Below are positions 49,212 through 57,075 of a stretch of DNA of 64,000 nt, piece by piece. Source of the stretch: an uncultured Methylomirabilota bacterium (GTDB lineage Bacteria > Methylomirabilota > Methylomirabilia > Methylomirabilales > 2-02-FULL-66-22). Position 1 is the stretch's first letter, and every line of letters starts with the position of its first letter. Below the pieces are notes generated by a model, which saw only the letters and a program-made list of their open reading frames with translations, searched no databases and had not been told where the DNA came from. A program made the position numbers and the translations under genes. The stretch covers positions 480,001 through 544,000 of the forward strand of contig CAWJSJ010000001.1 in the NCBI GenBank assembly GCA_963845565.1. The letters run 5' to 3'.

Positions 49212-49371
49212 CGGGATCCGTCGGGTTCTCCGGCGGCAGACCGATCGGGTCGGGGGTGTGTCCGGGGCGCCGCGCGCCCTGCGGTTCGGTGCGGTCCGGT
49301 TGACGTTGAGGATCTTGCACGAGATCCCGGTGGGTGCCGGGATCCTCGCTCACCGAGAAGGAGAATGCGGC

Positions 49372-50844
49372 ATGGACGGAATCGCCGGTTGCTATCGCCC
49401 GGGAGACCCCAACCTGGTCCAGAAGATCTTCCTGGCCACAGGGGCGGTACAGCATCGCGGGAAGGCGAGCGCGGGATTGGCCGTCGGGGGCACGAAGGGG
49501 ATCTACCTTCACAAGGGCATCGGTGGGATTGTGGACGTGGGGGACGAGGACATCCTGCGCATCTTCCAGGATCTGGAACCCGTCGCCGCCATCGGCAGCG
49601 TCGGTTACACCAAGAACAAGATCCCCGAGAAGCGGAACGCCGAACCGATCCTGGTCGAACCCAAAGCGAGCTCGACCTATACCGTGGTTCTCGCGATGAA
49701 CGGACGTATTCTCGAGGACGACGAGTTGCGGGCCGAGCTGGAGGACGCGTACAGCTTCAACACCGTCAATGCCACCGAAGTCGTCGGGGCCTTGCTTCAC
49801 CGCTGCGTCGAAGAGGAGGGAGCGAGCTTCGCCGCGGGCCGGAAGCTGGTGGACATCCTGCACGGGTGCGGTACGTTTTCCCTCGCTGCCCTCGTGCATG
49901 ATGGCGCCGAGACCGCACTCCTCACCCTGAACGACAGCCGGGCGTTCGAGCCGTTCTGTTTCGGTATGGTGGACGGGACGTTTCTCGCCTCGTCGGAGAG
50001 CTGTTCTCACCGCCGGCTCGGCGGGTTCCCGGAGCGCGAGTACGCCGGGGCGGAGATGACCATCTGCTCGTCGCGCGGTGTGGAGACCCAACGAGTCCGG
50101 ACGGAGACGGAAATGCCGGATGTCTTCCAGGCGGTCTACTTCGGGAACGCCGGCTCCCTCTACCGAGGGGAGGAGATCTTCCGGCTTCGCATGGGGCTCG
50201 GGCACGTGCTGGCCAAGCGGTATGGCGACACCGACGCCGATGTGATCATTCCGAACCCGGAGTCCGGGCGCGGCGTCTCCCACGGCATCGCCGAAGGGCT
50301 CGGGAAGCCGTTGCTTCCTGGGCTTGCCAAGCAGTCCCAGGCCATCCGCACCTTTCAGGAGGCGGGGCGGAGCAAGCGGATGCGGGAAGTGGCGGTCAAG
50401 TTCGCCGCCATGGACTCGGTCCTCGCCGGGCGACGCATCATCATGGGGGACGATTCCATCGTCAAAGGAAGCGTGAGCGAGGGCGGTGCGGTCTGGAGCG
50501 TCTACAACGCCGGGGCGGTAACACTGGAGTTTTGGGTTTCGTACGGCCCCATGTTTTTCCCCTCCTTCAAGGAGTGGCGCCGCGGCCGGGAGTGCCTGGA
50601 CGAGTTGGCCGTGCAGCGGGCATTCCGTGGCGACAACCCGTACGACAAGACGCCGGAGGGGATCAACGCCAAGGTGGCTGCCCTGTTGGGGGTGGATCGG
50701 GTCTGTTACAATACGTTCGAGGGCGTGAGAGCGGTCATCGGTCCGGGTTCGTACCAGGCGCTCGACGCGTCCTATCCCGTCGCGGAACGGTTTTGGCCCG
50801 CCTGGCTCAAGGAGGAAGTGGAGCACTTCAGCCACTATCGCTGA
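49372..50844 (+). CDS. Amidophosphoribosyltransferase-like protein lacking the Ntn Cys
   Basis: MDGIAG start, QHRG.ASAG, P.PESG and DDSIVKG PRPP-loop; canonical purF is separate at 59674. Confidence 0.8.
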   Translation: MDGIAGCYRPGDPNLVQKIFLATGAVQHRGKASAGLAVGGTKGIYLHKGIGGIVDVGDEDILRIFQDLEPVAAIGSVGYTKNKIPEKRNAEPILVEPKASSTYTVVLAMNGRILEDDELRAELEDAYSFNTVNATEVVGALLHRCVEEEGASFAAGRKLVDILHGCGTFSLAALVHDGAETALLTLNDSRAFEPFCFGMVDGTFLASSESCSHRRLGGFPEREYAGAEMTICSSRGVETQRVRTETEMPDVFQAVYFGNAGSLYRGEEIFRLRMGLGHVLAKRYGDTDADVIIPNPESGRGVSHGIAEGLGKPLLPGLAKQSQAIRTFQEAGRSKRMREVAVKFAAMDSVLAGRRIIMGDDSIVKGSVSEGGAVWSVYNAGAVTLEFWVSYGPMFFPSFKEWRRGRECLDELAVQRAFRGDNPYDKTPEGINAKVAALLGVDRVCYNTFEGVRAVIGPGSYQALDASYPVAERFWPAWLKEEVEHFSHYR

Positions 50845-51154: not shown

Positions 51155-52057
51155 GTGAGCACGCAGGCAGCTCAAATCTACCGGTTCGACGCGAGCGGAT
51201 GCAACGGGTGCGACGTGGAGGTGGTCGAGATCCTCGCCATTCTACCGGGCGCCGACCTCGGGTTCGAGATCGCCGAGCGGCCAGATGACGCGCAGGTCCT
51301 GATCGTGACGGGCGGGGCCAATCTCAAGTCCAAGGCGGAACTCCAGCATGCCTACGCGGCCTTGAAGGCGCCCCGATTGGTCGTTGCCGTGGGGTCGTGC
51401 GCGGCGAGCATGGGGATCTTCAAGGGCGGCTACTCCATGACCGGCCCGATCGATTCGATCATCCCTGTCGACCTATACATCACGGGGTGTCCGCCGCGGC
51501 CCCAGGTGATCCTCGGCGCCCTGGCGGAAGCCCTGCAGCTTTCGGTGGACGGCCTGGAGCCGCTCCTGCGAACGCCGGAGGGGTATCGGGGCGATCCCCA
51601 CGTCGATCGGGAGACCTGCGTCGGGTGCAGCGCGTGCGCGAACGTCTGCCCCGCGGATGCGATCGAGATCCTGGACGGCGAAGGCCAGCGGGTCGTCCGG
51701 TTCAGGCGAGAGGCCTGTGTCTTCTGCGGGACCTGTCAGGACGTCTGTCCGACCGAGTCGGTCACGTTGCGGGCCGGGGATCCGTCGTGGTATCGGGTCA
51801 AGGGCGCCTCGACGTCCGAGGCGGCGCTGCCGCTGGCCCAATGCGGCGTCTGCGGCGCCGCGTTCATGCCGGAGGCGCAGCTCGCGTGGGCGATGCGACG
51901 TGTCGAGGAGCGCCGCTCGCTGGACGCGGGCGATCGCGCGGCAATCCGGCGCAGCCTCCACGTCTGCATGGCATGCCGGCGAAGCCGGATCCCCGACGTC
52001 CGGGAGGCCAAGCGTCTCTTGACGTCGCTGGAGAAGAAGACCGCGATCGTATCGTAG
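51155..52057 (+). CDS. Group 4-type [NiFe]-hydrogenase small subunit (NuoB/HycG-like) fused to a NuoI/HycF-like ferredoxin
   Basis: CNGCDVE, GSCA and GCPPRP, then two CxxCxxCxxxCP motifs and a CxxC..CxxC tail. Confidence 0.88.
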   Translation: MSTQAAQIYRFDASGCNGCDVEVVEILAILPGADLGFEIAERPDDAQVLIVTGGANLKSKAELQHAYAALKAPRLVVAVGSCAASMGIFKGGYSMTGPIDSIIPVDLYITGCPPRPQVILGALAEALQLSVDGLEPLLRTPEGYRGDPHVDRETCVGCSACANVCPADAIEILDGEGQRVVRFRREACVFCGTCQDVCPTESVTLRAGDPSWYRVKGASTSEAALPLAQCGVCGAAFMPEAQLAWAMRRVEERRSLDAGDRAAIRRSLHVCMACRRSRIPDVREAKRLLTSLEKKTAIVS

Positions 52058-52131
52058 GCGATGGCCCCGGAGCATCCGGCCCCGCGCGAGCCCGCGGGAC
52101 GGGTCGGGCGCCCGGTTCGGGAGAGCGAATC

Positions 52132-52620
52132 GTGGAGTTGGGTGCAGCCAAGAATCGGGTGATCGTGTATGACGCGGGCCTGTGCACCGGGTGCCGCTAT
52201 TGCGAGATTGCCTGCGCGGTGTGGCACTGCGGTCGGATCGACGTCGGCCAATCGAGGATCCGCATCCTGTTCAACGCCGAGAACCGCACAGAGCCGTATG
52301 CGGCGGTGAACTGCCAGCACTGCGAGGAGCCGCTCTGCGCGACCGTCTGCCCGTCCGAGGCCATGCACAAGGATCGCGAGACCGGATGGGTGACCGTGAA
52401 CGCCTCGACCTGCATCGGCTGCGAGATGTGCCGGGCGGCCTGTCCGCTGGCCGTGCCCGTCTTCGACGAAGCCCAGAAGGTGGCGGTGAAGTGCGATCTG
52501 TGCCACGGGGAGCCGGAGTGCGTGAAGCACTGCTCGTCGCGGGCGTTGTGGCTCGCGCCCCGGGAGGAGGCCCTCCGCGTGAACGAACGGTTTTACCTCG
52601 GTGCAGGGGGCAATCCATGA
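52132..52620 (+). CDS. Multi-[4Fe-4S] electron transfer subunit (HycB/HydN/CooF-like)
   Basis: CTGCRYCEIAC, CQHCEEPLC..VCP, CIGCEMC..ACP and KCDLC..P.CV..C. Confidence 0.88.
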   Translation: MELGAAKNRVIVYDAGLCTGCRYCEIACAVWHCGRIDVGQSRIRILFNAENRTEPYAAVNCQHCEEPLCATVCPSEAMHKDRETGWVTVNASTCIGCEMCRAACPLAVPVFDEAQKVAVKCDLCHGEPECVKHCSSRALWLAPREEALRVNERFYLGAGGNP

Positions 52621-53282
52621 GCGCGGATACGGTACGGCGGCTCTTGGAGCGGCGAATCTCGGGGGCGCGGTTCACCTGCGCCGATTCGGGCGTGCGGCGG
52701 ACGGGCGTCACGCTACAGGCGGGGGAGGTCCGGGATGCCGTCCAGACGCTCTGCGCGGAGCCGGGGGCGCGATTCATGACCCTCACGGCCGTCGACCGGG
52801 GGACGGATATCGACCTCTTGTATCATATCTCCCTGCGGAGCGGCGTGGTCACCCTCCGGGTCGTGATCGCGAAGGAGACGAGCGCGATCGAGAGTATCGC
52901 GGACCTCGTTCCCGCGGCGGAGCTGGTGGAGAAAGAGGTGGCGGAGCTGTTCGGAGTGGGATTTGCAGGCCATCCGCGCGCCGCGAACCTCCTGCTGCCT
53001 GCCGACTGGCCCGTCGGCAAGCGGCCGCTGCGCAAGCCCCTCGTCGGTTCGGTTATTGCGCAGGCTCGCATCACCGCCGAGAACCTGGTGGCGAGCGGCT
53101 CCTCGATCGGCGTGGCGCGCTCCTCGATGGCCCGGCGCGAGAAGGCGGGACTGCCCAAGGTTCCGCCCTTGGTGGCGGCCGACCCGGATCGCTTGCGAGA
53201 ATTCCAGGAGTTCGTGAAGCGGACCGGCTTCGGCGAGCGGGCGGGGTTCGACTGGGCGAAGGGAAAACTCCGGTACAAGTAG
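52617..53282 (+). CDS. NuoC-like subunit with an HdrC-like C-terminal extension
   Basis: SI..L.P.A...EKEV.ELFGV.F.GHP..LLLP.DWP..PLRK NuoC motif; tail REKAGLPKVPP..FVKRTGF..GFDW. Confidence 0.75.
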   Translation: MSADTVRRLLERRISGARFTCADSGVRRTGVTLQAGEVRDAVQTLCAEPGARFMTLTAVDRGTDIDLLYHISLRSGVVTLRVVIAKETSAIESIADLVPAAELVEKEVAELFGVGFAGHPRAANLLLPADWPVGKRPLRKPLVGSVIAQARITAENLVASGSSIGVARSSMARREKAGLPKVPPLVAADPDRLREFQEFVKRTGFGERAGFDWAKGKLRYK

Positions 53283-53298
53283 AGCTGCGGGGCAGGTG

Positions 53299-54174
53299 AT
53301 GAGGCGACAGGCGCTCTTCCTCGGCTGTGTACTGCCGCTCCGGTTCCCGGGCATCGAGCTGGCCGCCCGACGGGTGTTCGGCCAACTCGGGGTGCCGTGC
53401 GTGGACCTCGAAGGCTATTCATGCTGCCCCGAGCCGGTCGTCCTCGGCTTGGCCGACCCCGACATGGCCCTCGCCGTCTCGGCGCGGAACCTGGCACTGG
53501 CCGAGCGGGCGGACGCGGACCTGACGGTGATGTGCAACGGCTGCTACGAGACGCTGGCCGAGGCGGATGCCGCGCTCCGGCACGACGGCGGGGCGCACGC
53601 GCGGGTCGCGCAGCTCTTGGATGGGATCGGGACCCGTTACGAGGGAGGGGTCCGGATCAAGCACTTCGTCGAGCTCCTGCACGAGGACGTGGGGGTCGCC
53701 CGCATCGCGGAGCAGGTGACGACCCCGGTCGACGTGACGGTCGCCGTGCACTACGGGTGCCACCTCTTCCGCGAGGTCGAGCACGAGGACACCCGGCGGA
53801 AGCCCCGGATGCTGCGGGCCCTGATCGAGGCCGCGGGGGCGCGGGTGGTCGACTACGGCTTGGAAGATCTTTGCTGCGGCTTCCCGATCTCGCAGTTCGA
53901 CAAGCGCATGGCCATGCAGGAGCGCCTCCTCCCGAAGCTCCGCGCGCTGGGCGCGACGGGCGCGGAGGCGATTCTGTTCTGCTGCCCGGCCTGCCTCAAC
54001 CAGTTCGAGAGCGGGCAGGGCCCGGCGGGCGACCTGGCGGCCGACGTCCCCCGGTATCCGTGCGTGCACATCCTGGAGCTCTTGGCGCTGGCCTTCGGGA
54101 TGCGGCCGGCGGAGCTGCACCTCGACGCGCGCTTCGCGCCGTCCAGGGAATTCGTGGACTGTTTCTGGGGGTGA
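53299..54174 (+). CDS. hdrB: Heterodisulfide reductase subunit B-like protein
   Basis: Two CCG domains: GC..SCCPEP..CNGC and HYGCH..CCG..CPAC..QF. Confidence 0.88.
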   Translation: MRRQALFLGCVLPLRFPGIELAARRVFGQLGVPCVDLEGYSCCPEPVVLGLADPDMALAVSARNLALAERADADLTVMCNGCYETLAEADAALRHDGGAHARVAQLLDGIGTRYEGGVRIKHFVELLHEDVGVARIAEQVTTPVDVTVAVHYGCHLFREVEHEDTRRKPRMLRALIEAAGARVVDYGLEDLCCGFPISQFDKRMAMQERLLPKLRALGATGAEAILFCCPACLNQFESGQGPAGDLAADVPRYPCVHILELLALAFGMRPAELHLDARFAPSREFVDCFWG

Positions 54175-54212
54175 GCCGCGACGCGGCGCTCCTTTCGTTT
54201 CGGATGACGGAC

Positions 54213-55298
54213 ATGACCACAACCATCACGATCGGCCCCTACCACCCGTACCTGCTCGAGCCCAGCATTGTCGACCTGCAGGTTGTCGACGGGCGCGTGG
54301 CGGACGCCACCATCACGGTGGGGTTCGTCAACCGGGCGGTCGAAGAACTGATGACGAAGAAAACCTACCGCCAGGCCGTGGTGCTGGCGGAGCACGTCTG
54401 CGGCATCTGCAGTAACGTCCACAGCCTGGCCTTCTGTCAGGCGACCGAAGAGATCCTGGGGGTCGAGATTCCGCACCGGGCCCGGTACGTTCGGACGATC
54501 GTCGTGGAGCTGGAGCGGCTGCACAGCCATTTCCTCTGCCTGGGACTCCTGGCCCACGCCCTCCATGACGGGGAGCATTTCGTCCGTATCATGGCGGAGC
54601 GGGAGGCGCTGATCCGCCTGCTCGAGCGCGTCAGCGGGAACCGGGTCCATTACGGTGTGAACGCCATCGGCGGCGTCCGGCGGGACCTGACGCCGGAACG
54701 GGCGAGCGATATCCTGGAGGTCCTGGGGCGGCTGGAATCGCTGGGCCATTTCGTGGTGGACGCCCTGGGCCCGGACGGGGCGCTGGGGAAGCGGGTCGCA
54801 GGGCAGGGGATCGTGACGGGACCCGAGGCCATCGCCCTCGGCGCGGTAGGGCCCACGCTGCGCGCCAGCGGGATCGAGAGCGACCTGCGGAAGGAGGACA
54901 GGTACGCGGCCTATCCGGACGTGACCTTCGATCTGATCGTCGAGACGGCCGGGGACGTCCGGTCCCGATTCCTGGTCCGGGCCCGGGAAACCCTGGAAAG
55001 CATCAAGATCATCCGGCAACTCTTCGACCGCCTGCCCGACGGACCGCTGACGGGCCAGGTGCGAGAGCCCAATATCAAGGAATCGCGAGAAGTCCTGGGG
55101 CGAGTCGAAGCACCACGCGGAGAGCTGGTCTATTTCATCCGCTCCAACGGCACGACCATTCCCGATCGGGTCAAGATCCGCACACCCACCTTCGCCAACA
55201 TCGCCTTCCTCCGCCGGGCGCTCACTGGAGCGCCGGTCGACGACACGCGGACCATCATCGAGAGCATCGATCCGTGCCTCTCCTGCACGGACCGGTAG
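54213..55298 (+). CDS. Group 4-type [NiFe]-hydrogenase large subunit
   Basis: GPYHP.L.EP, L1 EHVCGICS..H, ELERLHSH, EAPRGE, L2 DPCLSCTDR-stop. Confidence 0.92.
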   Translation: MTTTITIGPYHPYLLEPSIVDLQVVDGRVADATITVGFVNRAVEELMTKKTYRQAVVLAEHVCGICSNVHSLAFCQATEEILGVEIPHRARYVRTIVVELERLHSHFLCLGLLAHALHDGEHFVRIMAEREALIRLLERVSGNRVHYGVNAIGGVRRDLTPERASDILEVLGRLESLGHFVVDALGPDGALGKRVAGQGIVTGPEAIALGAVGPTLRASGIESDLRKEDRYAAYPDVTFDLIVETAGDVRSRFLVRARETLESIKIIRQLFDRLPDGPLTGQVREPNIKESREVLGRVEAPRGELVYFIRSNGTTIPDRVKIRTPTFANIAFLRRALTGAPVDDTRTIIESIDPCLSCTDR

Positions 55299-55441
55299 CA
55301 GGCTGCTGAAAACGGCCCATCTGCTGCGTTGGCTCGCTGAGGCACTCGTTGCGGCGTACCCACAGTACGCCACTCGGCCTCGGGCACCCATCCACAGGAT
55401 GGGTCGCGCCGCCTTGCATCTGGACCTTTTTGATCAGCCTG
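55299..55441. mobile_element. Miniature inverted-repeat element (MITE/REP-like)
   Basis: Terminal IR CAGGCTGCTGAAAA / TTTTTGATCAGCCTG; internal hairpins GCGTAC..GTACGC and ACCCATCC..GGATGGGT; no ORF. Confidence 0.65.
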
Positions 55442-55468
55442 GGCGAATATAGGAATTTCAGCAGCCAG

Positions 55469-56965
55469 TCAGTCGGGGAGGGGGCAGCCCTCACACCGCT
55501 CCGCCTTGGGCCGAGGCGCGATGGGTCGCCGCGGCTCGGCGGGTGTCTCCGCTTTCCGGACCGGATGGATGTGCACCGGCATCCCCGCGGCGACCTCGGC
55601 GGCTTCCATGAGGGCCTCGGAGAGGGTCGGGTGAGCGTGGATGGTGACCATGAGGTCTTCCAGGGTCGCCCCCAACTGCACCGCCAGGGTGCCCTCGGCG
55701 ATCAGTTCAGAGGCGTGCGGGCCCACCATCCCAACTCCCAGGACCCGCCGGGACTCCGGACAGCTGATCACCTTGACCACGCCCTCGGTGCGCCCCATGG
55801 TCCGCGCCCGGCCCGAGGCCACGAGGGGGAAGCGGCCCACAGTGACCGGCAGGTTCTGCGCGGCCGCCTCCCGCTCGGTCAGGCCGGCCCAGGCCAGCTC
55901 GGGGTCGGTGAACACCACGGCCGGGATGGCCCGAGCCTCGAGCGCCGAGGAGTGACCTGCGATCGCTTCGGCGGCAACCTTGCCCTCGTGGCTGGCCTTG
56001 TGCGCCAGCATGGGGCCGGGGACGATGTCGCCGATGGCGTAGATGTGCGGTTCCACCGTCCGGCCCACCTCGTCCACCTCGATGAATCCGCCCCGGATGG
56101 GGCGGATGGCCGTCCGGTCCAGGCCCAGCCGATCGGTATTGGGGCGGCGCCCGACGGCGACCAGGATCTGGTCGGTTTCGAGCGTCTGCCGCTGCCCCTG
56201 CTGTTCCACGGTGGTCAAATAGCCGCTCGATCCCTGCTGGATGTCGACGACCTTGGACTCGGTCAGGATGCGCGAGAACCGTCTCTCGCAGCTCTTGACC
56301 ACCACGTCCACCAGGTCCTGGTCGGCCCCCGGGAGGAGCCGCGGGAAAAACTCGACCATCGTCACCTGCGAGCCCAGTCCGGCATAGACCAACCCCATCT
56401 CAAGGCCGATGTAGCCCCCTCCGACGACGAGCAGCCGGGGCGGGATCTCGGGGAGGCGCAGCGCCTCTGCCGAGGACCAGAGCGGGAGCGTCTGGCCCGC
56501 CGGCAGCCGGTTGATGTCCGATCCGGTGGCGAGGATGCAATGGCGGAAGCGGATCCGCGCGGATTCTGCTCCGCTCACTTCGAGGGTGCGATTGTCCAGG
56601 AATTGCGCCCAGCCGCGGACGACCGTCACGCCGCGCCGCTTGAGGAGCCCGTCGATCCCCTTGGTCAAGGTCTCGACCACGCTCCCGCTCCAGCGGCGCA
56701 ACGCCGCCGGATCCAGGGAGAGGTCCGAGAACGTGAGGCCCATCTTGCGCGCGGCGCGAGCGCTTTCCGCCAGCTCCACGACGTTGATGAGGGTCTTGGA
56801 TGGAATGCATCCTTCGATCAGGCACACACCGCCGAGTCGATCCCGCTCTTCGATGAGGACGACGTTCTTGCCGAGATCGGCGGCGCGGATGGCCGCAACG
56901 TATCCTCCGGGTCCGCCGCCGACGATGGCGACCTCTGTTTCCTCGCGCAGGTTGCCCAGGACCAT
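55469..56965 (-). CDS. lpdA: Dihydrolipoamide dehydrogenase
   Basis: GGGPGGY, GGVCLIEGCIPSK, GGGYIG and HAHPTLSE motifs. Confidence 0.95.
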   Translation of the reverse strand: MVLGNLREETEVAIVGGGPGGYVAAIRAADLGKNVVLIEERDRLGGVCLIEGCIPSKTLINVVELAESARAARKMGLTFSDLSLDPAALRRWSGSVVETLTKGIDGLLKRRGVTVVRGWAQFLDNRTLEVSGAESARIRFRHCILATGSDINRLPAGQTLPLWSSAEALRLPEIPPRLLVVGGGYIGLEMGLVYAGLGSQVTMVEFFPRLLPGADQDLVDVVVKSCERRFSRILTESKVVDIQQGSSGYLTTVEQQGQRQTLETDQILVAVGRRPNTDRLGLDRTAIRPIRGGFIEVDEVGRTVEPHIYAIGDIVPGPMLAHKASHEGKVAAEAIAGHSSALEARAIPAVVFTDPELAWAGLTEREAAAQNLPVTVGRFPLVASGRARTMGRTEGVVKVISCPESRRVLGVGMVGPHASELIAEGTLAVQLGATLEDLMVTIHAHPTLSEALMEAAEVAAGMPVHIHPVRKAETPAEPRRPIAPRPKAERCEGCPLPD

Positions 56966-57075
56966 GTCACGAACCTCCCATTTTGACGTTCGCCAGAGCG
57001 CTGGAACGACATTCCTGTTGGATGGTCGCCCGCACGAGGCCATCGCGGGTCCTGCGAAAGACCCCGGTGAATTTC

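Follow-up and report, generated by a model that had tools for sequence, protein, structure and literature searches.

Described HdrB-linked group 4 hydrogenases and a bacterial relative

'HdrB-interacting' [NiFe]-hydrogenases of group 4 have been described from archaeal genomes under the names Ehd, Ehe, Drh and Ehg, together with an 'Ehd-like' cluster that includes Bathyarchaeia (PMC9723716). The same account assigns Ehd to Methanomethylicia, Ehe, the gene cluster of which contains GcvH, to Culexarchaeia, and Ehg to Nezhaarchaeia (PMC9723716), and Ehg is reported to be expressed in a cultured methanogen (PMC12700198). For Drh of the Methanocellales, which is described there as lacking an antiporter subunit, direct H2-dependent heterodisulfide reduction has been proposed (PMC9723716). 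This enzyme has also been named the 'disulfide-reducing hydrogenase' of Methanocella with reference to Lyu & Lu 2015, and is described as putatively membrane-associated and up-regulated in syntrophic co-culture (PMC6046458). Furthermore, groups 4l and 4q of Asgard archaea are reported to carry a 'peripheral heterodisulfide reductase domain' (bioRxiv 10.1101/2024.07.04.601786). Here, we analyzed a 64,000-nucleotide stretch of DNA (hereafter the window; forward strand of contig CAWJSJ010000001.1, positions 480,001 to 544,000, assembly GCA_963845565.1) from an uncultured Methylomirabilota bacterium, which contains an operon of five genes (hereafter the cassette; window positions 51155-55298, + strand) that combines the soluble subunits of a group 4-type [NiFe]-hydrogenase with HdrB. 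On balance, this operon probably encodes a cytoplasmic, non-bifurcating H2:disulfide oxidoreductase composed of five soluble subunits.

The HdrB-linked group 4 design has, according to the published descriptions, already been predicted from archaeal genomes, and the window contains a bacterial, soluble variant of that class. The initial annotation of the window had considered the architecture undescribed, a view that has to be abandoned, since HdrB-linked group 4 hydrogenases are in print (PMC9723716, PMC6046458, bioRxiv 10.1101/2024.07.04.601786). In contrast, its functional interpretation, a soluble complex with built-in HdrB that couples H2 directly to disulfide chemistry without bifurcation, remains the best reading, and a coupling of this kind has already been proposed in print for Drh.

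Like Drh as described, the cassette is a group 4-type [NiFe]-hydrogenase cluster with hdrB and no ion-antiporter subunit, for which H2-dependent disulfide reduction without energy conservation is proposed. Unlike the cassette, Drh is referred to as 'putative membrane-associated' and listed among 'membrane-bound' complexes with predicted transmembrane subunits (PMC6046458, PMC9723716). The host of Drh is a methanogen that has the heterodisulfide of coenzyme M (CoM) and coenzyme B (CoB), CoM-S-S-CoB, whereas the cassette resides in a bacterium; the two are compared here by published description only. Ehd, the 'Ehd-like' complexes, Ehe and Ehg, hosted by Methanomethylicia, Bathyarchaeia, Culexarchaeia and Methanonezhaarchaeia, respectively, share with the cassette a modular design in which HdrB is embedded in a group 4 operon (PMC9723716, PMC12700198). 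Ehd, Ehe and Ehg, however, include an ion-antiporter subunit according to their descriptions, and energy conservation has been proposed for them; the window's cassette has no such subunit, although one member of its clade, the Thermoplasmata locus L047, does have NuoK- and NuoL-like genes. In the Asgard groups 4l and 4q, as in the cassette, an Hdr module is placed on a peripheral arm resembling that of membrane-bound hydrogenase (MBH), but these enzymes are membrane-bound, MBH-like complexes of Asgard archaea and are set beside the cassette by description only.

No paper on a bacterial or Rokubacteria member of this class, on a wholly membrane-free form or on a NuoC-HdrC fusion was found in a search that left Lyu & Lu 2015, Vanwonterghem 2016 and supplements outside its range. 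New are the bacterial host, the probable archaeal origin, the five soluble subunits without membrane parts, the first position of a HycG-HycF fusion and a NuoC-like subunit with a predicted built-in dock for HdrB.

Composition and conservation of the five-gene operon

The five tightly packed genes, all on the + strand, are spaced by 74, -4, 13 and 29 bp and correspond to C1:531155-535298 within a contig of 1.08 Mb. Their Pfam and NCBIfam domains bear out the identities given in the initial annotation. Gene 1 (51155-52057, +; 300 aa) encodes a small-subunit fusion of a HycG/NuoB-type domain (Oxidored_q6, PF01058, in Pfam and NuoB in NCBIfam; residues 16-125) with a HycF/NuoI-type domain for 2x[4Fe-4S], whose top NCBIfam match is the HycF family (residues 139-278) and which matches Fer4 families in Pfam (residues 147-204). 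All 16 cysteines are invariant in 35 of 35 homologues. C16, C19, C82 and C112 of the NuoB-type domain are the presumed ligands of a single proximal [4Fe-4S] cluster, and the HycF/NuoI-type domain contains eight cysteines for two [4Fe-4S] clusters. An additional CxxC...CxxC motif (C230, C233, C271 and C274; window positions 51842-51979) is likewise invariant in all 35 homologues, lies beyond the 12 cysteines needed for three clusters and may form a zinc site or a fourth cluster.

Gene 2 (52132-52620, +; 162 aa), for which we selected a GTG start codon behind GGGAGAG, encodes a HycB/DmsB/HybA-type polyferredoxin (Fer4_11 in Pfam, E 3.6e-16) with NCBIfam matches including PadI, DmsB, HybA and HydN. 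Its 16 cysteines, invariant in 35/35 homologues, are sufficient for four [4Fe-4S] clusters, and the protein presumably acts as an electron wire or as a second entry point. Gene 3 (52617-53282, +; 221 aa) encodes a NuoC-like subunit (Complex1_30kDa, PF00329, at residues 32-140 in Pfam), which consists of a NuoC/HycE-N-type domain (52617-53039, +; residues 1-141) and a cluster-free HdrC-type arm (53040-53282, +; residues 142-221). Gene 4 (53296-54174, +; 292 aa) encodes HdrB with the two CCG domains initially annotated (PF02754, two stretches). Ten of its cysteines are invariant (C11, C43, C44, C80, C83, C155, C193, C194, C230 and C233), which would suffice for two noncubane [4Fe-4S] clusters and mark the protein as the putative disulfide-reducing site. 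Solved methanogen HdrB chains are matched with E-values of 1e-62 to 6e-51 (9sfi_C, 1.1e-62; 5odc_B, 3.3e-61).

Gene 5 (54204-55298, +; 364 aa) encodes the [NiFe] large subunit, which is of the group 4 type and contains the domains Complex1_49kDa (PF00346) and NiFeSe_Hases (PF00374). Large subunits of group 4 hydrogenases are of the NuoD/HycE type and carry two CxxC pairs that ligate the Ni-Fe site. In gene 5, these are CGIC (CGICSNVH) and the C-terminal DPCLSCTDR, where the protein stops without a C-terminal extension, and the four Ni-binding cysteines reported earlier (C66, C69, C358 and C361) are invariant in 36/36 homologues. The nearest solved relatives are the alpha subunit of Pyrococcus MBH (6cfw_L, 3e-67), followed by E. 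coli HycE (7z0s_E, 1.6e-54). The large subunit and the NuoB-type small subunit characteristic of group 4 hydrogenases are both encoded, by genes 5 and 1, respectively.

The cassette resembles the peripheral arms of formate hydrogenlyase (FHL; 7Z0S) and Pyrococcus MBH (6CFW) in its HycE/MbhL-type large subunit, HycG-type small subunit and HycF- and HycB-type cluster proteins. Unlike these complexes, it contains no HycC/HycD or Mbh membrane subunits, and HdrB is found where FdhF would deliver electrons; the fusion of HycG with HycF and the NuoC-like subunit with an HdrC arm are specific to the cassette in this comparison. With MvhADG-HdrABC (5ODC), it shares a closely related HdrB (E 3.3e-61), the HdrC C-terminal arm and the overall H2-to-disulfide chemistry. 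In contrast to MvhADG-HdrABC, the cassette lacks HdrA, flavin adenine dinucleotide (FAD), MvhD and the ferredoxin domain of HdrC, and its hydrogenase is of group 4 rather than group 3c; bifurcation is not expected, because HdrA, FAD and MvhD are lacking and the hydrogenase is not of the 3c type. Searches with Pfam and NCBIfam identified no HdrA flavoprotein, MvhD or group 3c hydrogenase within the operon; all of these are present elsewhere in the genome. The initial statement that hdrA and a full hdrC are absent holds for the window but not for the genome, where HdrABC is fully encoded twice, along with an Mvh-type hydrogenase, and it overlooked that the NuoC-like subunit ends in the C-terminal arm of HdrC.

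When one genome per species was scanned, 39 related loci were obtained, most of them from Bathyarchaeia (large subunit 44-53% identical), some from Thermoplasmata and three from bacteria (68-70%). All five genes were found in 32 of these loci, with hdrB between the genes for the NuoC-like and large subunits; five further loci (L016, L023, L035, L041 and L046) are clipped by contig ends yet consistent with this arrangement, and two (L020 and L051) lack the cassette. The cassette is not a chance assembly, since the five-gene set recurs in 32/39 loci with five more being clipped. Archaeal loci have the order polyferredoxin-NuoC-HdrB-large-small, and bacterial loci have the small subunit first. 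The cofactor cysteines (16, 16, 10 and 4 in the small-subunit fusion, polyferredoxin, HdrB and large subunit) are invariant across 35-36 homologues. Large subunits of Bathyarchaeia have about 14 additional C-terminal residues, and those of bacteria and Thermoplasmata end at the last ligand motif. A gene for a HycI protease is located near the cassette in 9/39 loci.

An HdrC-type arm as predicted dock for HdrB

A profile of 34 homologues of gene 3 was searched against solved chains. Up to about position 141, it matches HycE (7z0s_E, E 1.5e-13), the NuoC-type chain K of 6u8y and Nqo5. Positions 142-219, by contrast, correspond to residues 106-183 of the 184 residues of HdrC (5odc_C, E 9.8e-11), with further matches to 8rvu_c and 9sfi_E, and gene 3 as a single sequence matches TIGR03290 (E 9e-4). 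As judged from these alignments, the last 80 residues of the gene 3 product are the cluster-free C-terminal arm of HdrC and not part of NuoC. An Atlas look-up of the NuoC-like protein returned NuoC-family clusters only, the top one having 632 members, 87% archaeal and most often Bathyarchaeota.

The pair of NuoC-like subunit and HdrB, each entered as an alignment, was modeled together with controls. The pair scored 0.84 versus 0.01 for the best control, against a mark attained by 116 of 157 solved complexes and by 2 of 215 mismatched pairs. Contact agreement between runs was at least 93%, and the partner predicted local distance difference test (pLDDT) value at least 84. All confident contacts on the NuoC-like chain fall within residues 145-209 of the arm, which is placed against the N-terminal CCG part of HdrB. 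The model thus contains an HdrB interface, but its passing may reflect likeness, because an HdrBC complex has already been solved (5ODC). The arm resembles a working HdrB clasp and is a predicted dock for HdrB; a model of this kind does not prove binding.

Searches for a membrane arm

In agreement with the initial annotation, no NuoH or NuoL family member was identified by Pfam among the 34 open reading frames (ORFs) of the window. A membrane helix is predicted in none of the five proteins, whose maximum Kyte-Doolittle values over 19 residues range from 1.29 to 1.54 (1.45 in the gene 1 product) compared to 2.64 in a NuoH-like control. In the whole genome, the nearest matches to PF00146 (C1:613924) and PF00361 (C1:617257) are about 78 kb from the cassette and adjoin another NuoD-like gene. 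Six places in the genome are NuoD-like, and none of its five NuoH-like genes is more than about 4 kb from a NuoD-like gene other than that of the cassette. Antiporter-like genes are located at these NuoD/NuoH-type loci, apart from one pair on contig C4 beside no NuoD-like match. The membrane subunits typically encoded together with the catalytic genes of group 4 hydrogenases are therefore not encoded together with those of the cassette.

The picture is similar among the relatives. NuoH, NuoL and Mrp subunits were not detected by Pfam in the flanking ORFs of eight related loci, and a hydropathy screen of all related loci combined with Pfam returned transporters (TauE, sulfur transport, MgtC, PHO4 and VIT1), with L047 as one exception. 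Among cassette-bearing Bathyarchaeia assemblies, G357 is without a PF00146 match and G538 contains one such membrane locus, on another contig.

Proposed reaction and electron acceptor

In the proposed mechanism, the complex would represent the cytoplasmic peripheral arm of a group 4, complex I-like hydrogenase, with HdrB occupying the place held by formate dehydrogenase in FHL. H2 would be cleaved by the large subunit at its Ni-Fe site, and electrons would pass from the proximal cluster of the HycG-like domain via the two HycF-like and the four HycB-like clusters to HdrB, which would be kept on the complex by the HdrC-type arm of the NuoC-like subunit and whose two noncubane clusters would reduce a disulfide to two thiols. 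Electrons would not be bifurcated, because no flavin or HdrA is involved, nor would an ion gradient be made, because no membrane subunit takes part. The sequence in which electrons move along this path, the direction in which the enzyme runs and the nature of its disulfide are our inferences; compared with CoM-S-S-CoB, a low-potential dithiol such as lipoyl or another protein-bound disulfide would be the more fitting partner of an uncoupled enzyme. The published proposal of the same reaction for Drh counts in favor of this interpretation (PMC9723716, PMC6046458), as do the maturation genes hypF, hypC and hypD, which an earlier-suggested genome scan located at C1:554082-557792.

Several points weigh against an H2:disulfide oxidoreductase of five soluble subunits. 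The reaction is deduced from parts, because no enzyme of this class has yet been isolated or tested for activity, and synthesis of CoM or CoB is not expected in the bacterial host. HdrB scores 242.1 bits against the TIGR03288 equivalog, below its cut-off of 345.15, and the two-cluster ferredoxin domain of HdrC is absent from the cassette. In two Thermoplasmata loci, the cassette continues into further genes: at L047 (L047:9044-11481) into MbhD/NuoJ-like, NuoK-like and NuoL-like genes, and at L044 (L044:5084-10977) into a NuoE-like gene and a 1073-aa NuoF-GltD-like fusion. These extensions argue that the cassette serves both by itself and joined to other parts, and the window's cassette may have a distant partner of its own. 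The best evidence that the five-gene form may function without a complex I-type membrane module comes from four cassette-bearing Bathyarchaeia assemblies (G251, G442, G502 and G545) with zero PF00146 and zero PF00361 matches in the whole assembly, the completeness of which is unstated. As to the two extended loci themselves, the membrane genes of L047 resemble the Ehd arrangement, and L044, where genes for a 2Fe-2S/4Fe-4S protein and a glutamate-synthase-like protein are added as well, points to a version linked to NAD(P)H.

The HycB-like subunit could also be a port for reduced ferredoxin or another partner enzyme, turning the complex into either a ferredoxin:disulfide oxidoreductase that evolves H2 as an overflow valve or a three-way junction of H2, ferredoxin and disulfide. 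HycB serves as the adaptor to the partner enzyme in FHL, and the cassette has matches to the HycE and HycF families; moreover, four clusters exceed the need of a short wire, and relatives within the clade do attach modules, namely the NuoE/NuoF-GltD-like genes of L044 and the antiporter-like gene of L047. However, the genes next to the cassette in the window include none for a ferredoxin-reducing enzyme, and the five-gene set is isolated in most loci, which makes a ferredoxin-linked function unlikely, though worth keeping in mind.

With regard to the acceptor, there is a small chance that the cassette encodes a cytoplasmic H2:lipoyl-protein oxidoreductase captured from archaea by a bacterial lineage, the substrate being a lipoyl protein or low-potential dithiol carrier of the GcvH/LbpA type. 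This suggestion is based on GcvH being encoded within 7 kb of the cassette in 8/39 loci, several of which are close kin, as well as in the Ehe cluster as described (PMC9723716). In addition, an uncoupled soluble enzyme would suit a gap between donor and acceptor much smaller than that from H2 to CoM-S-S-CoB. If true, H2 would directly feed or drain lipoyl-dependent C1, 2-oxoacid or sulfur metabolism. In four Bathyarchaeia loci (L017:11106-14289, L018, L026 and L031), behind GcvH come a gene for a GltD/HdrA-like flavoprotein that contains ferredoxin domains and then an MvhD-like gene, all a few kb downstream of the cassette, and L026 has genes for a sulfur-transport protein and DsrE/DsrE/DsrH immediately downstream.

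We regard it as very unlikely that the cassette docks in trans onto the NuoH-like and antiporter-like subunits of another complex I-like locus and conserves energy. The genome does offer five other NuoD/NuoH-type loci and the antiporter-like pair on C4 beside no NuoD-like match, and L047 has membrane genes in cis. Yet each NuoH-like gene already adjoins its own NuoD-like gene, the paralogues in the same genome are just 39-40% identical to the large subunit of the cassette and fall outside its clade, and the four archaeal assemblies mentioned above carry the cassette without any such membrane genes.

Even less probable is a role of the HdrB-like subunit in quinone reaction or membrane attachment, as for the CCG-domain protein SdhE of type E succinate:quinone reductases, which would make the complex an H2:quinone oxidoreductase. 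A match to the NCBIfam SdhE 'membrane anchor' family does exist, but at 105 bits it is weaker than that to methanogen HdrB, which is far nearer (242 bits; 1e-62 to solved HdrB chains). Furthermore, the HdrC-type arm is kept as a partner for HdrB, and no hydrophobic segment is predicted.

Distribution and probable archaeal origin

The window is bacterial, as it encodes sigma-54, HPF, RapZ, components of the phosphotransferase system and PlsY, and the G+C content and third-position G+C of the cassette equal those of its flanks. The source genome comprises 5.36 Mb and is 98.7% complete. Within the phylum, the fusion of NuoC with the arm was identified in 6/251 genomes, all belonging to the window's genus (6/21; the window's genome and 5 of 20 others), and in 0/230 genomes of the remainder of the phylum, which covers 12 other families. 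Three of these genus members (G011, G009 and G008; loci L014, L015 and L016) share with the window the flanks arginyl-tRNA synthetase-amidotransferase-cassette-lpdA-lipA-aminotransferase-PurF. In the class of L017 (Bathyarchaeia), 42 genomes (43 rows) of 301 sampled encode a NuoC-like protein matching through the arm to at least residue 221.

In a quick maximum-likelihood tree of 41 large subunits, which was rooted on two NuoD outgroups with long branches meeting near the root and contains no published Drh or Ehd references, the HdrB-linked large subunits form one clade (36 rows; Shimodaira-Hasegawa-like approximate likelihood ratio test (SH-aLRT) support 99). This clade excludes the genome's two membrane-bound group 4 paralogues. 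The four bacterial rows form one branch (99), which is sister to four Thermoplasmatota rows (93) and nested inside archaeal diversity. The tree is compatible with what was probably a single transfer from archaea to the genus. One contig recorded as Krumholzibacteriaceae (L021) shows the gene order of archaea, with HycI located upstream, and the large subunit it encodes is placed on a short branch inside Bathyarchaeia; this reflects either mis-binning or a second, recent transfer.

Genomic surroundings and transcription

The cassette is flanked as initially annotated: upstream by a PurF-like amidotransferase gene (49258-50841; TIGR01134, 150 bits, under the cut-off of 350) and downstream by the convergent lpdA (55472-57043, - strand; TIGR01350, 492 bits, above the cut-off of 408.8). 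Three members of the genus without the cassette (L059-L061) have, at the same site, an lpdA that likewise exceeds the TIGR01350 cut-off and adjoins lipA; lipA is present as a single copy in the source genome. The lpdA of the window is inverted and 39-40% identical to those of L059 (6492-7811), L060 and L061, compared to 74-87% identity of the flanking genes, and has no match at E 1e-100 or better in five cassette-less genomes. The amidotransferase gene, the five hydrogenase genes and a replacement lpdA may therefore constitute a variable island. The lpdA-lipA neighborhood was considered as evidence for a lipoyl substrate and dropped as weak, as L059-L061 already have lpdA-lipA at this site without the cassette.

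The source bacterium is rich in hydrogenases. About 60-90 kb downstream (C1:594051-625088) lie a complete Mvh-HdrABC locus (C1:594051-600662), a membrane-bound group 4 locus with HycI and another [NiFe] large subunit that is 40% identical to an MvhA; a second HdrABC is encoded at C2:1401331-1407655. In total, the genome outside the window also contains two membrane-bound group 4 loci with HycI, as well as two GcvH genes.

The stop codons of the large-subunit gene and lpdA are separated by a 173-bp spacer (55299-55471) with terminal inverted repeats GGCTGCTGAAA...TTTCAGCAGCC and fold z-scores of -3.3 (+ strand) and -3.9 (- strand). It matched 201 blastn segments in its own genome at roughly 70-93% identity, which identifies it at the sequence level as a dispersed repeat similar to repetitive extragenic palindromic (REP) elements or miniature inverted-repeat transposable elements (MITEs). 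Contigs from RNA libraries, with flanks of many kinds, spike to a depth of 25-365 at 55023-55656 because of this repeat; tRNA and Rfam families were considered as explanations of the spike, but neither matched.

The stretch or part of it occurs in 20 of the 24 public runs listed, which derive from wetland, sediment, freshwater and soil metagenomes. Contigs of four metatranscriptome runs from three studies cover the operon at 95% identity or more, as exemplified by run X15 with pieces of 772, 344 and 1148 nt on the operon and 1-7 differences. They hint weakly at transcription, since DNA can occur in such libraries; contig depth is unsuited to rank expression, and operon parts left uncovered in single runs carry no meaning. 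That only a non-functional relic of an archaeal operon was left in the genome after transfer, as the patchy spread of the cassette (6/21 genus genomes, 0/230 in the rest of the phylum) could imply, is hardly credible given five intact reading frames, G+C and third-position G+C like those of the flanks, the retention of all cofactor ligands, the presence of hyp genes and the RNA-library contigs covering the cassette.

Implications

HdrB-linked group 4 hydrogenases have been widely predicted in archaea and none has been characterized; the form with five soluble subunits would lend itself best to expression, assay and structure determination. The cassette suggests that a complex I-like peripheral arm can persist without its membrane module, and that the HdrB-linked arm has crossed between archaea and bacteria. 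Naming the disulfide that the cassette reduces would tell what Hdr-type enzymes reduce in non-methanogens.

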